A stretch of 4,444 nucleotides of DNA from Escherichia coli (GTDB taxonomy: Bacteria > Pseudomonadota > Gammaproteobacteria > Enterobacterales > Enterobacteriaceae), in NCBI RefSeq assembly GCF_003334385.1, contig NZ_QOWN01000085.1; one strand, given 5' to 3'. Positions 1,361 to 4,444 of this stretch are shown here, piece by piece (the stretch's first letter is position 1; each line of letters opens with the position of its first letter). The notes under the pieces are model-generated. The model searched no databases, had not been told where the DNA came from, and was given only the letters and a program-made list of their open reading frames with translations. A program made the translations under genes and the position numbers.

Positions 1361-1388
1361 TTGCGGTAAAGCGAGAGTTAAGTAGAAT
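1361..1388 (+). promoter_or_regulatory. candidate sigma70 promoter for the hok transcript (-35 TTGCGG 1361-1366, 16-bp spacer, -10 TAGAAT 1383-1388)
   Basis: The hexamers were read by eye. They are positioned a few nt upstream of the conserved hok-mRNA 5' element that begins near 1391. Confidence 0.35.
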
Positions 1389-1390
1389 TG

Positions 1391-1442
1391 CTGCGGGTGC
1401 TTGAGGCTGTCTGCCTCGGGCATGCCACCGTAAGGCAGACAG
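1391..1442 (+). promoter_or_regulatory. hok mRNA 5' leader elements: a tac-like 5' segment (1391-1406) and a 9-bp stem (1407-1415 / 1434-1442) with an 18-nt loop
   Basis: CTGTCTGCC at 1407-1415 is perfectly complementary to GGCAGACAG at 1434-1442. Segment 1392-1406 is complementary to 1769-1784 near the 3' end, pairing 15 bp with a single bulge. This matches the architecture of plasmid R1 hok mRNA (GCTTGAGGCTTTCTGCC...GGCAGAAAG) as I recall it. Confidence 0.5.
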
Positions 1443-1449
1443 AGAAAAG

Positions 1450-1516
1450 CCCCAGTTAACATTATGCGTCTTGCAGGACGCTTAACATTAATCTGAGGCC
1501 AATTTCATGCTAGTCA
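1450..1516 (-). ncRNA. sok: putative Sok-like antisense RNA (type I antitoxin) covering the upstream start codon and SD of the hok leader
   Basis: On the minus strand there is a candidate promoter: -35 TTGCCT (plus coordinates 1550-1545), 17-bp spacer, -10 TAACCT (1527-1522), predicting a start near 1514-1516. The transcript would be antisense to the ATG at 1507 and its SD, and a hairpin GCGTC-N6-GACGC lies at 1466-1481. The ends are not determinable from sequence alone. Confidence 0.35.
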
Positions 1517-1563
1517 CATGTAGGTTAGCCTCTTACACGCCGAAAGGCAAGGAGAAGCAGGCT
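1507..1563 (+). other. Mok-like upstream reading frame: ATG 1507 with SD GAGG 1495-1498, running in frame into hok (the full frame 1507..1719 would give a 70-aa N-terminally extended Hok)
   Basis: The ATG at 1507 is 57 nt (19 codons) upstream of the hok ATG and in the same frame. The other two frames across the hok start have no usable start codon (one has a stop at 1521-1523 and no ATG/GTG/TTG downstream of it, the other a TGA at 1565-1567). Confidence 0.4.
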
Positions 1564-1719
1564 ATGAAGCAGCAAAAGGCGATGTTAGTCGCCCTGATCG
1601 TCATCTGTATTACCGTCATTGTGACGGCACTGGTAACGAGGAAAGACCTCTGCGAGGTACGAATCCGAACCGGCCAGACGGAGGTCACTGTCTTCACAGC
1701 TTACGAACCTGAGGAGTAA
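1564..1719 (+). CDS. hokD: Hok/Gef-family type I toxin, 51 aa (MKQQKAMLVALIVICITVIVTALVTRKDLCEVRIRTGQTEVTVFTAYEPEE), closest to HokD/RelF
   Basis: The peptide has the Hok-family hallmark of an N-terminal transmembrane helix followed by the conserved TRKDLCEVRIRTGQTEV...FTAYEPEE periplasmic tail. It is near-identical to E. coli HokD as I recall it, though the specific paralog assignment is from memory. The SD GGAG (1551-1554) is 9 nt upstream of the ATG. Confidence 0.9.
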   Translation: MKQQKAMLVALIVICITVIVTALVTRKDLCEVRIRTGQTEVTVFTAYEPEE

Positions 1720-1787
1720 GAGACCTGGCGAGGGAGAAATCCCTCGCCACCTCTGATGAGTCAGGCATCCTCAACGCACCCGCACTT

Positions 1788-1814
1788 AACCCGCTTCGGC
1801 GGGTTTTGTTTTTT
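1788..1814 (+). terminator. rho-independent terminator of the hok transcript
   Basis: A 7-bp stem AACCCGC/GCGGGTT with loop TTCG (1788-1805) is followed by TTGTTTTTT (1806-1814). Confidence 0.7.
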
Positions 1815-2166: not shown

Positions 2167-3213
2167 GTGCGGGTATTACTTCGACCTGTTCTGGTACCGG
2201 AACTCGGGCTGGTGATCGTTAAGCCGGGCCGTGAATCCATGCCGGTATTCCACAATACCCGGGTACTGGTGGAGCCGGAACCGAAAAGCATGCGTAATCT
2301 GCCGTCCGGAGTCGTTCCTGCCGTTCGACAGCCGCTGGCAGAGGATAAAACATTACTGCCATTTTTCAGCAACGAACGGGTGATTCGTGCTGCGGGTGGC
2401 GCTGGTGCACTGTCTGACTGGTTATTACGTCACGTGAAATCCTGCCAGTGGCCACACGGTGATTATCATCACAGTGAAACCGTCATACATCGTTACGGTA
2501 CCGGCGCGATGGTGTTGTGCTGGCACTGCGACAACCAGCTGCGTGACCAGACTTCCGAATCACTCGGGCAACTTGCTCACCAAAACCTGTCAGCATGGAT
2601 GATTGACGTCATACGCCATGCAATGAATGGCACGCAGGAGCGGGAATTATCGCTGGCTGAATTATCCTGGTGGGCTGCCTGCAATCAGGTGGCGGACGCG
2701 CTACCGGAGGCAGTATTGCGTCGTTCGCTGGGATTACGTGCGGAAAAAATCCGCCCGGTGTACCGCGAAAGCGACATCATACCGGGAGAACCGACCGCCA
2801 CCAGCATACTGAAGCAGCGCACAAAAAATCTTGCGCCGCTGCCTCACGCCCACCAGCAAAACCCGCCACAGGAAAAGACGGTGGTCAGCATTGCTGTTGA
2901 TCCGGAGTCTCCGGAATCTTTAATGAAGCGACCTAAACGTCGCCGTTGGGTAAATGAGAAATATACGCGCTGGGTAAAGACACAGCCGTGTGCGTGTTGT
3001 GGTAAGCCTGCTGACGATCCGCATCACCTGATTGGTCATGGTCAGGGGGGAATGGGGACAAAGGCCCACGATATTTTCACGCTACCGTTGTGCCGGGAGC
3101 ACCACAACGAACTTCATGCAGACCCGCTGGAGTTTGAGAAAAAGTACGGCTCTCAGATTGAGTTAATTTTTCGTTTTCTTGATCACGCCTTTGCGACTGG
3201 CGTGCTCGGGTAA
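2167..3213 (+). CDS. DUF968-type prophage protein (YdfU-like), 348 aa, with a C-terminal HNH-like zinc-finger nuclease motif
   Basis: GTG 2167 is preceded by GGAGG (2157-2161). The C-terminus reads PCACCGKPADDPHHLIGHG...LPLCREHHNELH, a CxxCG...HH...CxxHH pattern resembling HNH nucleases and lambda NinG/Rap. Size and position match YdfU of Qin as I recall it. Confidence 0.8.
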   Translation: MRVLLRPVLVPELGLVIVKPGRESMPVFHNTRVLVEPEPKSMRNLPSGVVPAVRQPLAEDKTLLPFFSNERVIRAAGGAGALSDWLLRHVKSCQWPHGDYHHSETVIHRYGTGAMVLCWHCDNQLRDQTSESLGQLAHQNLSAWMIDVIRHAMNGTQERELSLAELSWWAACNQVADALPEAVLRRSLGLRAEKIRPVYRESDIIPGEPTATSILKQRTKNLAPLPHAHQQNPPQEKTVVSIAVDPESPESLMKRPKRRRWVNEKYTRWVKTQPCACCGKPADDPHHLIGHGQGGMGTKAHDIFTLPLCREHHNELHADPLEFEKKYGSQIELIFRFLDHAFATGVLG

Positions 3214-3225
3214 AAGAGGTGACTG

Positions 3226-3588
3226 ATGCTCATAGATTTGGTTTTACCTTACCCGCCGACGGTGAACACTTACTGGCGACGCCGTGGCAGCACATATTTT
3301 GTATCAAAAGCCGGGGAGCGTTATCGCCGGGCAGTGGTGCTTATTGTTCGCCAGCAGCGACTGAAATTAAGCCTGTCCGGACGGCTGGCAATAAAAATTA
3401 TTGCAGAGCCACCGGATAAGCGTCGTCGTGACCTGGACAATATTCTGAAAGCACCACTGGATGCGCTGACGCACGTGGGGTTGTTAATGGACGATGAGCA
3501 GTTTGATGAAATCAATATTGTACGTGGCCAGCCAGTATCTGGTGGACGGCTGGAGATAAGAATTACAGAGGTGGGTGTGCATGAATAA
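3226..3588 (+). CDS. rusA: RusA-family Holliday junction resolvase, 120 aa
   Basis: The RBS AAGAGG (3214-3219) precedes the ATG at 3226. The protein carries the conserved RusA core (YPPTVNTYW near the N-terminus, acidic catalytic cluster DKRRRDLDNILKAPLDAL...LMDDEQF, C-terminal GGRLEIRITE), which aligns to E. coli RusA from memory. Confidence 0.88.
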   Translation: MLIDLVLPYPPTVNTYWRRRGSTYFVSKAGERYRRAVVLIVRQQRLKLSLSGRLAIKIIAEPPDKRRRDLDNILKAPLDALTHVGLLMDDEQFDEINIVRGQPVSGGRLEIRITEVGVHE

Positions 3589-4270
3589 CCAGTATTTACA
3601 GTTTGTTCGTGAGCAACTCATGATTGCCACTGCAGATCTCAGTGGGTCGACAAAATGCCAGCTGGAAGCCTGGCAGGAAAATGCCCTGTTCGATACAGGG
3701 CGTTACAGACGCAAAAAAATTCGTTACCGCGATGAGGTAACCGGAAAAATGATCACGCGGGATAATCCCCCGATCCAGGGTAAACAATCACTGGCGAAAG
3801 GCTCATCAATTGCGCTGGTCAGTCCTGTTGAGTTTGCAACATCATCGTGGCGGCGTGCCGTTCTGGAACTGGAAGAACATCAGAAGGCGTGGTTGTTGTG
3901 GTGTTATGGCGGAAACATTTGCTGGGAGCATCAGATCGCGATAACGCAGTGGGTGTGGAGTGAATTTAAAACTCAGTCCGGCTCCAGAAAAATTGCAGTG
4001 AAAACGCTGGAGCGTGTGAAGAAGTTGATCTGGCTGGCGGCACAGGATGTCAGAGGATGGGTTACCGGGTGTGAGGTCTACCAGAGACAGGAGCTTGCCA
4101 GACTGTGTGGAGTTAAGCCTGATAACTGGAGCCATAATTATGCGAACTACTGGCGTGAGATGTGCGATATTTTTAAGCGCCTCGATAGAGAATCCTTGAT
4201 TTGCTCCGTGAAAATAAGAGCGCAACAAAAAGCGACCTTTTCACGACGAGATATTGCAAAAGTCAATTAA
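3581..4270 (+). CDS. putative late-gene antiterminator (Q-like, QuuQ-type), 229 aa
   Basis: ATG 3581 follows GAGGTGG (3568-3574) and overlaps the rusA stop by 8 nt; the ORF track's GTG at 3575 is 2 codons upstream. Its position immediately after rusA and before an intergenic promoter-plus-terminator region is the canonical Q location in lambdoid phages. I cannot confirm the family by motif from memory. Confidence 0.5.
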   Translation: MNNQYLQFVREQLMIATADLSGSTKCQLEAWQENALFDTGRYRRKKIRYRDEVTGKMITRDNPPIQGKQSLAKGSSIALVSPVEFATSSWRRAVLELEEHQKAWLLWCYGGNICWEHQIAITQWVWSEFKTQSGSRKIAVKTLERVKKLIWLAAQDVRGWVTGCEVYQRQELARLCGVKPDNWSHNYANYWREMCDIFKRLDRESLICSVKIRAQQKATFSRRDIAKVN

Positions 4271-4282
4271 ATCGCGTATGTT
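4254..4282 (+). promoter_or_regulatory. candidate late promoter (pR'-like): -35 TTGCAA 4254-4259, 17-bp spacer, -10 TATGTT 4277-4282
   Basis: The hexamers were read by eye at the 3' end of the Q-like gene. A transcript from here would meet the terminator at 4332-4359 after about 50-70 nt, resembling the short terminated late leader RNAs on which Q proteins act. Confidence 0.25.
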
Positions 4283-4331
4283 TCGTATAAATCTGATATT
4301 TTGCCGATTTTGTACGTGATGGCAAAGTAAG

Positions 4332-4359
4332 AAAAAACCACCGCCAGGTGGTTTTTTTT
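4332..4359 (+). terminator. intrinsic terminator (tR'-like), possibly bidirectional
   Basis: An A6 run precedes the stem CCACC/GGTGG with loop GCCA (4338-4351), followed by T8 (4352-4359). The flanking A and T runs could extend the stem and would allow termination in both orientations. Confidence 0.75.
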
Positions 4360-4444
4360 ATGTCCGAAAATCGCGTCAGTACAGTAAACGCGCTGGTGGC
4401 GGTGAATACCTGTCTTTCAGCTTGCTGGCTTTTTCGACAAGAGT
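4360..4444 (+). CDS. 5' end of an ORF beginning immediately after the terminator (MSENRVSTVNALVAVNTCLSACWLFRQE..., partial, first late-region gene?)
   Basis: The ATG at 4360 is open to the window end (28 codons). There is no obvious SD and the start abuts the terminator T-tract, so the call is weak. The hydrophobic stretch could fit a holin-type late gene, but that is speculative. Confidence 0.2.
   Translation, partial: MSENRVSTVNALVAVNTCLSACWLFRQE

Follow-up and report, generated by a model that had tools for sequence, protein, structure and literature searches.

A probable autonomous hok/sok-type toxin-antitoxin cassette in the nin-to-Q region of an Escherichia coli lambdoid prophage

The hok locus and its prophage setting

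The segment 1361-1814 of the window (the whole stretch of DNA that was analysed, 4,444 nucleotides) contains a hok toxin gene surrounded by candidate regulatory elements. The features are the following:

1361-1388, plus strand: candidate hok mRNA promoter, as read from the sequence (-35 TTGCGG at 1361-1366, 16-nt spacer, -10 TAGAAT at 1383-1388)
1393-1406, plus strand: tac element at the mRNA 5' end, with three mutually exclusive partners in the folds (nascent hairpin, fbi and ucb)
1395-1812, plus strand: predicted full-length hok (mok-hok) mRNA of about 418 nt, its 5' end placed from the -10 spacing and the start of the RF01794 match, its 3' end from the terminator
1407-1442, plus strand: 5' leader hairpin, with a perfectly complementary 9-bp stem (1407-1415/1434-1442) that is extended further
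1441-1515, minus strand: predicted Sok antisense RNA of about 71-75 nt, with a 9-nt single-stranded 5' tail, a long hairpin and a U-rich tail
1446-1455, plus strand: ucb / anti-SD (AAGCCCCAG), pairing with the mok Shine-Dalgarno region 1492-1498 in the full-length fold or with tac in the truncated fold
1494-1497, plus strand: mok Shine-Dalgarno site GAGG, 9 nt 5' of the ATG at 1507
about 1495-1532, plus strand: Sok-target hairpin of the processed mRNA (truncated-mRNA fold), with the outer stem GAGGC 1494-1498 / dcb GCCUC 1528-1532 and the apical loop 1510-1516
1507-1719, plus strand: mok ORF of 70 codons, in frame with hok and encoding a Hok with an N-terminal extension, like mokW and mokC
1522-1550, minus strand: candidate sok promoter, as read from the sequence (-35 TTGCCT at 1550-1545, 17-nt spacer, -10 TAACCT at 1527-1522, start near G1515)
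1551-1554, plus strand: hok Shine-Dalgarno site GGAG, 9 nt 5' of the ATG at 1564, where homology to K-12 relBE-hokD starts
1564-1719, plus strand: hok toxin gene, 51 aa (ORF list, Pfam PF01848)
1727-1748, plus strand: 3' UTR hairpin GGCGAGGGA/TCCCTCGCC, found as an inverted repeat and in the folds, likely the 3' end-protecting stem of the processed mRNA
1769-1784, plus strand: fbi element, the 3' partner of tac (15 bp and one bulge with 1392-1406)
1788-1814, plus strand: intrinsic terminator (terminator scan and fold), with a stem-loop at 1788-1805, a 7-bp stem, a UUCG loop and a U tract

The first-pass annotation had proposed a self-contained hok/sok-type cassette in which hok is preceded by a leader ORF with its own Shine-Dalgarno site and followed by an intrinsic terminator. 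This description is confirmed: tac, fbi, mok, a candidate sok and the terminator are all present at the coordinates listed above, the leader ORF runs in frame with hok for its 70 codons, the terminator scan recovers the stem-loop 1788-1805 with its T run, and relBE is absent upstream. The absence of a RelE- or RelB-like ORF upstream of hok had also been pointed out, and neither the ORF list nor the NCBIfam and PHROG searches detected a RelB- or RelE-like ORF or family match anywhere in the 4,444-nt window.

The -10 hexamer of the candidate hok promoter (TAGAAT or TAAAAT) is kept in nearly all of 63 distinct related copies, including those with fully divergent DNA upstream, and is positionally equivalent to the TATGAT located 5' of the R1-type mRNA start. 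The promoter was missed by the consensus scan because its -35 hexamer matches the consensus at only three of six positions. Sub-threshold Rfam matches to isrK, rsmX, CsrC (1722-1809) and ceN48 (1408-1506) were dismissed as generic hairpin-plus-terminator matches.

The cassette is localized in the nin-to-Q region, between the replication/nin genes and Q. The local gene order is hok-ORF-DUF968-rusA-Q, and hok is co-oriented with the flanking early genes and with Q. An equivalent placement, upstream of rem, DUF968, rusA and Q, is found in mEp460 and in a Rac variant. No complete genome matched all 4,444 bases at high identity (the best coverage was 80-83%), and the prophage is a mosaic.

Family membership and related loci

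With a probability of about 0.85, we regard the segment 1361-1814 as a hok/sok-family type I toxin-antitoxin cassette that is autonomous, belongs to the hokD/hokW/hokC subgroup and is carried by a lambdoid prophage. Its membership in the family is demonstrated by sequence. The Rfam model RF01794 (hok/sok) matches 1395-1569 over its full length (model positions 1-157 of 157) with 117.6 bits for a gathering score of 59 (E = 2.8e-27). Comparable scores are obtained for K-12 hokC (118.3 bits), K-12 hokB (109.7 bits) and 933W hokW (113.5 bits), and the match lies on the hok-sense strand here as in K-12 hokC and hokB. The Hok toxin covers all 42 positions of the Pfam model HOK_GEF (PF01848, i-Evalue 3.5e-22) and aligns with HokD, HokW, HokC, HokB and R1 Hok, with the conserved C, TR, L, E, R, G and EV residues among the aligned positions, while the mok product matches PHROG 251 "MokW-like host killing" (1.5e-31). 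The NCBIfam Hok-family model NF007279 (PRK09738) gave 46.8 bits, below its curated cut-off of 73, which is the naming threshold of one HMM and does not define the biological family; the other NCBIfam Hok matches were also sub-threshold. RefSeq names the identical DNA and protein hokD and HokD. Hok is 94% identical to K-12 HokD and 37% identical to R1 Hok, whereas the Mok-Hok protein is 87% identical to MokW and 75% identical to MokC. The mok ATG and its Shine-Dalgarno site are invariant among relatives, and by analogy mok would be required for hok translation.

The locus mokW/hokW/sokW of phage 933W and VT2-Sakai, annotated in 933W since 1999, displays 89.6% DNA identity over 431 of the 454 nucleotides, with the same elements in the same order. 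Its mok is in frame with hok, and the two share a stop codon, as do mokC and hokC of K-12. The two loci differ in their surroundings and at two internal points. The 933W locus is found towards the right end of the phage genome, next to a large ORF of the tail region, whereas the present cassette lies between the replication/nin genes and Q. Divergence of the 933W copy begins immediately past fbi, and the GC-rich terminator of the cassette is absent from it. Finally, the Sok 5' tail / target loop is CUAGUCA in the cassette and CUGAACA in 933W. The hokW-sokW locus of Sp5, the closest studied homologue, was established experimentally as a toxin-antitoxin system of type I that depends on the Sok promoter (PMC8621323).

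In the K-12 locus hokC/mokC/sokC (gef), mok is also in frame with hok, but IS186 is inserted about 20 nt downstream of hokC, so that the 3' end of the K-12 copy is disrupted. The Sok hairpin of the cassette is about 16-18 nt longer than that of hokC, as indicated by an insert in the Rfam alignment. The family archetype, hok/sok (parB) of plasmid R1, shares its set of elements and its three-state folding logic with the cassette and has a sok promoter placed, as here, inside mok and 5' of the hok Shine-Dalgarno site; it is plasmid-borne with a demonstrated role in post-segregational killing, whereas the cassette is prophage-borne. The mok and hok genes of R1 occupy different reading frames, an out-of-frame arrangement also observed in mokB and in a Rac-variant mok. 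The R1-type locus used for comparison was L089; L086, truncated by IS150 and lacking an Rfam match, was left out, as was a Klebsiella plasmid copy (L090), apparently without the canonical leader.

A further comparison is with hokD (relF) of K-12, located in the cryptic prophage Qin. The first-pass annotation had cited hokD as the third gene of relBEF, presumably devoid of regulatory elements of its own, and the alignment agrees: homology to relBE-hokD begins only about 17 nt 5' of the hok ATG and extends across fbi and the terminator, and the leader is therefore missing in K-12. There, relB-relE occupies the place taken here by the promoter, tac, the leader hairpin, ucb and sok, together with the Shine-Dalgarno site and start of mok. 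In contrast, the hok Shine-Dalgarno site, the CDS, the 3' UTR hairpin, fbi and the terminator are about 96% identical to those of the cassette, so that K-12 hokD keeps an orphan fbi. The window does not have the relBEF arrangement, with relB and relE directly upstream of hok, and K-12 homology is lost upstream of the hok Shine-Dalgarno site. The K-12 neighbourhood, hokD-rem-ydfU-Q, is of the same type as that of the present prophage. K-12 hokD is co-transcribed with relBE (PMC3598666), and integration of relBE is reported to have cut an ancestral hokD of about 70 codons to 51 codons (PMC6379469, citing Ramisetty & Santhosh 2016). The proposal that the present locus represents the ancestral form of hokD, an idea already published, is reasonable, because all the other hok loci carry the leader.

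RNA pairings and the Sok antisense RNA

The alternative pairings expected of a hok mRNA are recovered in silico. A 5' leader stem and a 15-bp pairing between the two ends of the transcript had been predicted by the first-pass annotation, and both are present in the sequence: 1407-1415 (CTGTCTGCC) and 1434-1442 (GGCAGACAG) are perfectly complementary in inverted orientation, and 1392-1406 (TGCGGGTGCTTGAGG) can form 15 bp with 1769-1784 (CCTCAACGCACCCGCA), a single C (1775) being bulged out. The repeat search also detected the perfect 9-bp core of this tac/fbi helix (1392-1400/1776-1784). When the suggested folding of 1391-1814 was carried out, the long-range helix was present in both the MFE and the centroid structures.

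We considered whether the long-range complementarity and the leader stems could be chance matches around an ordinary small ORF, since short inverted repeats are common and other inverted pairs of 10-13 nt occur within the same 800 bases. This reading is highly improbable. The MFE of 1391-1814 is -182.3 kcal/mol against -134.0 +/- 6.0 for shuffled sequences (z = -8.0, none of 100 shuffles being as stable), the full-length Rfam match is at twice its threshold, and the pairing is kept in 64 copies and, with compensatory changes, across paralogues. The tac/fbi helix is 98.9% paired in the 64 distinct copies, and its partners change together in hokB (GGGUGCCUGAGA / UCUCAUGGCACCC) and in R1 (GGCGCUU / AAGCGCC). 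The tac/ucb helix is 99.8% paired in the 64 copies, yet invariant. Since tac, fbi and ucb are near-invariant in the close family, the covariation that supports these helices comes from few paralogues; the covariation test of tac/fbi and tac/ucb in the 64 close-family copies carries little information, and the comparison of paralogues was used instead. Because the sequences are related, the shuffle controls for covariation are inflated. Within the close family, some covariation is observed elsewhere: the pair 1409/1440 of the leader hairpin is A-U in 48 copies and G-C in 14, one pair of the 3' UTR hairpin shows compensatory changes (A-U 32, G-U 26, G-C 5), and three stem pairs of the Sok hairpin do so as well.

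The folds describe three states. In the nascent 34-nt transcript (1395-1428), tac pairs with 1413-1425 (-21.2 kcal/mol, z = -4.7). In the full-length fold, tac is engaged with fbi, and the ucb motif GCCCCAG pairs with CUGAGGC, by which the mok Shine-Dalgarno site is sequestered. In the 3'-truncated fold (1393-1768), GGGUGCUU pairs with AAGCCCC (tac/ucb) and GAGGC with GCCUC (mok-SD/dcb). This predicted succession (metastable tac hairpin, tac/fbi, tac/ucb) is the scheme described for R1 hok, and it is from the same R1 model that the hairpin 1727-1748 likely acts in 3' end protection (PMC9841398).

The Sok-target segment folds to an equivalent hairpin in 20 of 20 haplotypes, with energies from -9 to -16 kcal/mol. 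A count of pairs on one fixed structure arrives at only 80%, as the register of the stem is not the same in all haplotypes, and folding each haplotype is more informative. On the opposite strand, the predicted Sok RNA folds with -29.2 kcal/mol (z = -4.9). Its position is that of the sokW misc_RNA annotated in 933W (L003 2585-2655), with the same 9-nt overlap with the start of mok, a geometry shared by sokC and mokC of K-12. The candidate antisense promoter noticed earlier on the minus strand lies where the annotated sokW and sokC RNAs have theirs, and the R1-type locus carries TTGCGC/TATCCT at this place. Its match to the consensus is weak (4/6 for the -35 and 3/6 for the -10 hexamer), and it was unreported by the consensus scan. 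The segment 1522-1563 has a pairwise diversity of 0.032, although the neighbouring mok codons are hypervariable.

These hypervariable codons belong to the sole fast-evolving part of the cassette, the Sok 5' tail and apical target hairpin (1499-1506 and 1510-1521), which flanks the invariant mok AUG. Its diversity is 0.365 versus 0.03 at the third codon positions of hok, while the hairpin fold is preserved in every haplotype. Diversifying selection for orthogonal Sok/hok specificity classes is a tentative and rather doubtful explanation; if true, several hok/sok prophages could reside in one cell without cross-neutralisation, resembling immunity groups. None of the 14 pairs of copies in the 12 IMG isolate genomes with at least two copies is of the same class, in an underpowered comparison where about 0.9-1.5 would be expected (P ~0.4). 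Relaxed constraint would be the alternative: no mutation breaks the complementarity of a cis-antisense pair, and the sequence of the Mok peptide is dispensable; even the frame of mok varies among close copies.

Probable activity and significance of the cassette

Judged from its sequence, the cassette is real and probably functional. By analogy with homologues and with the literature, its transcripts, their 3' processing, their cleavage by RNase III, the toxicity of Hok and a biological role may be expected as follows. The conserved promoter (-10 TAGAAT) would produce a stable mRNA of about 418 nt, whose 5' tac element would be kept in a local hairpin during synthesis. In the finished transcript, the tac/fbi pairing and the masking of the mok Shine-Dalgarno site by ucb would prevent both translation and Sok binding. 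Slow trimming to the hairpin 1727-1748 would then remove fbi and permit the tac/ucb pairing, leaving the mok Shine-Dalgarno site in a hairpin with dcb and the mok start region in its apical loop. Sok (about 70-75 nt, with its promoter inside mok) would bind this target hairpin through its 5' tail, with a block of mok translation and cleavage as the result. Upon depletion of Sok, ribosomes would start at mok, Hok would be made and the inner membrane depolarised. As mok is in frame with hok, a 70-aa Mok-Hok protein could also be produced.

An intact architecture is no guarantee of activity, since the chromosomal hokA, hokB and hokC are reported without post-segregational killing (cited in bioRxiv 2025.08.07.668861). 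The cassette could, like them, be a passenger relic, structurally intact and physiologically silent, causing neither killing nor protection. Chromosomal hok loci reportedly were not activated by rifampicin (bioRxiv 2025.08.07.668861), both promoters are poor matches to the consensus, and a high abundance (2350 genomes) would also be within reach of tolerable, inert DNA. We consider a silent relic unlikely, however, for the non-coding elements are better conserved than the third codon positions of hok, with a pairwise diversity of 0.009-0.04 in tac, ucb, fbi and the sok promoter (0.009 for tac across the 64 copies), and 135 of 154 related copies have an undisrupted hok ORF. Moreover, toxicity, neutralisation by SokW and an effect on phage yield are described for the homologue with 89.6% identity (PMC8621323).

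If the cassette is active, a role in faster lysis and phage release after induction, and not in prophage maintenance or abortive infection as the first-pass annotation had suggested, is conceivable, though we hold it with more doubt than confidence. In Sp5, hokW-sokW is reported to aid phage release after induction: SokW is lost once mitomycin C is added, production of HokW depends on RecA, and phage release drops by half upon deletion (PMC8621323). The orientation of hok, shared with the early genes and Q, and the placement shared with mEp460 and the Rac variant agree with such a role. By pure inference, read-through from PR in the hok-sense direction might raise hok RNA and interfere with the convergent sok promoter. 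The 933W/Sp5 locus, however, is elsewhere in the genome, near the right end, so that the read-through idea is unsupported by that system, and the hok/sok of plasmid R1 lowers T4 plating (cited in PMC8621323), so that a defence role is equally possible.

Cassettes of this type are common in E. coli and were previously described; publications already cover the family and its mechanism, its location in prophages and the truncation by relBE. The practical value of the present analysis lies mainly in annotation, and no new question is opened. The intact leader is found in 2350 of 5426 complete E. coli genomes, in roughly 3381 copies altogether, and the K-12 junction in 1174, which makes the intact form about twice as common and K-12 the atypical case. 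In these approximately 2350 complete genomes, RefSeq annotates only the 51-aa hokD CDS, the leader and the Sok RNA being unannotated. As this CDS alone is labelled, intact and probably active cassettes are indistinguishable from the truncated, relBEF-linked gene of K-12. The biology of hokD (RNA editing, persistence, prophage induction, phage exclusion) would be better studied on the intact prophage copies.

Prophage setting and family of the cassette

The window (4444 bases) corresponds to the nin-to-Q part of an E. coli lambdoid prophage, and every gene in it lies on the + strand. The ORF list, combined with the matches indicated, gives the following features:

298-1098, + strand: DUF551-type ORF (family/PHROG matches)
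1095-1178 and 1214-1318, + strand: two small hydrophobic ORFs of 27 aa and 34 aa, directly upstream of the cassette, the second with a strong AGGAGG SD
1564-1719, + strand: hok ORF (family matches)
1887-2165, + strand: PHROG 1212 ORF (PHROG match)
2167-3213, + strand: YdfU homologue, DUF968 / HNH-like (family matches)
3226-3588, + strand: RusA (family matches)
3581-4270, + strand: Q-like antiterminator (family matches)

Family and PHROG searches returned no family match for either small ORF; the 34-aa one is the hypothetical protein WP_001278450.1 in RefSeq. The whole window was found at high identity in no complete genome of the collection searched, and the prophage is therefore a mosaic. Five genomes carry the 601 bases around hok at 100% identity and have the CDS annotated as hokD. 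At 1327-1348, 13 bases 5' to the putative hok -35, there is a perfect 22-bp palindrome, CGATATGGGAATTCCCATATCG; it falls outside the homology block common to most cassette copies and might bind a protein or mark where the upstream transcription unit ends. On the 3' side of the Q gene (4277-4394), there are an AT-rich stretch and, at about 4332-4358, a strong terminator hairpin (AAAAAACCACCGCCAGGTGGTTTTTTTT). This region displays weak, sub-threshold Rfam matches (Phe_leader, isrK, STnc370) and is probably a late promoter / tR'-type leader, as after Q in lambdoid phages.

The toxin matches Pfam HOK_GEF (3.5e-22) and PHROG 251 "MokW-like host killing" (1.5e-31), and displays 94% identity with K-12 HokD and 37% with Hok of plasmid R1. 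For the 70-aa Mok-Hok protein, identity is 87% with MokW of phage 933W and 75% with K-12 MokC. Over the whole 454-base cassette, the locus annotated mokW / hokW / sokW in 933W and VT2-Sakai shows 89.6% identity. The 933W copy (L003, about 2925-2955) diverges right after fbi, the 3' partner of the mRNA 5' element tac, and is devoid of the GC-rich terminator that most other copies have; the 3' end of its mRNA must arise in another way.

The whole Rfam model RF01794 ("sok") is recovered at 1395-1569 with 117.6 bits (gathering score 59), about the score of K-12 hokC, K-12 hokB and 933W hokW. In all of these loci (the matches at L087, 902-1054, and L088, 1067-1218, included), the match is on the hok-sense strand. 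What RF01794 in effect models is the leader of the hok mRNA, which runs from +1 to the hok AUG, and Sok is encoded by the opposite strand. As the model is named "sok antitoxin", strand calls made from it are the reverse of what the name implies.

Regulatory elements and predicted folds

All the elements listed by the first-pass annotation are present in the sequence at the positions it proposed. The 5' leader stem is formed by 1407-1415 (CTGTCTGCC), the perfect complement of 1434-1442. The long-range lock pairs 1392-1406 (tac) with 1769-1784 (fbi) in a 15-bp helix with a single bulged C, and its perfect 9-bp core was also recovered by a separate repeat search. This helix appears in both the MFE and centroid folds of the predicted transcript 1391-1814, whose energy is -182.3 kcal/mol vs -134.0 +/- 6.0 for dinucleotide shuffles (z = -8.0). 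The leader ORF, mok, begins with the ATG at 1507, which GAGG precedes by nine bases, and its 70 codons are in frame with hok. A terminator scan placed the intrinsic terminator at 1788-1805, followed by a T run. The candidate antisense promoter on the minus strand comprises -35 TTGCCT (1550-1545), a 17-nt spacer and -10 TAACCT (1527-1522); its match to the consensus is weak and the consensus scan gave no call at 1550-1522, but its position and conservation make it credible. By transfer of the annotated sokW coordinates, Sok is predicted on the minus strand from about 1515 to 1445, with a 9-nt overlap with the mok start, the same geometry as K-12 sokC/mokC. The predicted 75-nt RNA folds (-29.2 kcal/mol, z = -4.9) as a long hairpin flanked by a free 5' tail of 9 nt and a U-rich tail.

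The modelled folds of the cassette mRNA follow step by step the established R1 hok scheme (summarised in PMC9841398). The nascent RNA would hold tac in a local hairpin, since the first 34 nt fold strongly with tac paired to 1413-1425 (-21.2 kcal/mol). In the full-length fold, tac pairs with fbi and the mok SD region CUGAGGC with ucb (GCCCCAG), so that the complete RNA would be closed, with the mok SD masked. The fold without the 3' end (1393-1768) pairs tac with ucb (GGGUGCUU with AAGCCCC) and the mok SD GAGGC with dcb (GCCUC, 1528-1532). Removal of the 3' end would thus yield the tac/ucb helix and an SD/dcb hairpin, whose apical loop, containing mok codons 2-4, is the predicted Sok target; a GC-rich hairpin at 1727-1748 would shield the trimmed 3' end. 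By analogy with homologues, the cassette would undergo 3' processing, Sok binding and RNase III cleavage, and its toxin would be active.

Conservation and diversification among copies

The comparative set contained 64 distinct cassette copies from IMG/VR prophages and named phages, with 86-100% identity to the window. The most conserved parts are tac, ucb, fbi, the sok promoter segment and the hok SD (pairwise diversity 0.009-0.04), no higher than the hok third codon positions (0.03). The tac/fbi and tac/ucb helices are paired at 98.9% and 99.8% and near-invariant, so within-family covariation is of little help for either. Clear compensatory changes are found in the leader hairpin (pair 1409/1440: A-U in 48 copies, G-C in 14), in the Sok hairpin and in the 3' UTR hairpin. 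Across paralogues, compensatory changes maintain the 5'-3' pairing: GCGGGUGCUUGAGG with CCUCAACGCACCCGC in the window, GGCGCUU with AAGCGCC in R1, and GGGUGCCUGAGA with UCUCAUGGCACCC in hokB. The hok -10 (TAGAAT/TAAAAT) is retained even next to unrelated upstream DNA, which puts the left boundary of the mobile module near 1361-1380.

The hok ORF is intact in 135/154 copies. The mok frame relative to hok varies among close copies (window 1507-1563; L005, L009, L064): it is in frame in 107 copies (70-aa Mok-Hok), reduced to a 19-aa leader with a stop codon overlapping the AUG of hok (AUGA) in 19, and out of frame in five (68 aa, R1-like). This fits the published view in which it is the act of translating mok that counts, and not its product. 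The hok Tyr47 codon lies in a UACG context (GCUUACGAA; window 1702-1705) kept in 64/64 copies; UACG is the TadA A-to-I editing motif. HokC, HokD and HokE are reported to acquire their position-46 cysteine via RNA editing, at a low level (6%) for hokD (PMC12214031).

The sole fast-evolving block (1499-1506 and 1510-1521; diversity 0.365 vs 0.03 at hok third codon positions) coincides with the 5' tail of Sok and the inner part of its target hairpin, and flanks the invariant mok ATG. It may reflect merely relaxed constraint, or may mark diversified Sok specificity classes among co-resident prophages. The target hairpin still folds in 20/20 haplotypes. Co-resident copies share a class in 0/14 pairs vs 0.9-1.5 expected, a difference that is not significant. 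One prophage locus (L173, IMGVR_UViG_651053022_000007) carries two tac-leader motifs, at contig positions 68794 and 68957, only 163 bases apart; this spacing and their different variable-block haplotypes suggest that the hok leader was partly duplicated in tandem or is a recombinant.

Relation to K-12 hokD and possible function

The first-pass annotation had contrasted the cassette with K-12, where hokD follows relBE, and had seen in it an intact ancestral form of hokD. Both points are correct: the ORF list and family searches detected no RelB- or RelE-like ORF in the window, and homology to K-12 relB-relE-hokD (prophage Qin) starts only about 17 nt before the hok ATG. K-12 hokD is thus left without promoter, tac, ucb, sok and mok start, but retains fbi; identity is about 96% through the CDS, 3' UTR hairpin, fbi and terminator. 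In the K-12 3' UTR (L002, 4025-4120), fbi is thus an orphan regulatory element whose partner tac is deleted, best read as the remnant of an intact locus. The surrounding genes are conserved as well, with the order hokD-rem-ydfU-Q in K-12 and hok-rem-(DUF968)-rusA-Q in mEp460 and a Rac variant. Among 5426 complete E. coli genomes, 2350 carry the intact leader and 1174 the K-12 relE-hokD junction. In the genomes listed (hits H126-H137), RefSeq leaves the regulatory leader (179 bases) without any feature, so that neither Sok nor mok is annotated there and the hokD CDS is the sole named feature. The truncation is already published: PMC6379469, citing Ramisetty & Santhosh 2016, describes an ancestral hokD of ~70 codons cut to 51 by relBE integration, and PMC12214031 reports the loss of its canonical components through genomic rearrangement. 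The observation is confirmed, and the interpretation of the cassette is supported.

Its closest studied homologue is hokW-sokW of phage Sp5, where HokW is toxic and neutralised by SokW expressed from its own promoter; after mitomycin C, SokW is gone and HokW appears in a RecA-dependent manner, and deletion of the locus halved phage release (PMC8621323). Plasmid-borne R1 hok/sok reduced T4 plating, according to work that PMC8621323 cites. A recent survey found hok approximately four-fold enriched in prophages and left the function open (bioRxiv 2025.08.07.668861). The cassette has the orientation of the early rightward operon, which makes PR read-through a possible route to hok-sense RNA and sok interference. 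Although hokW-sokW of Sp5 sits elsewhere in the phage genome, we infer that read-through after induction could both supply hok-sense RNA and disturb the convergent sok promoter.
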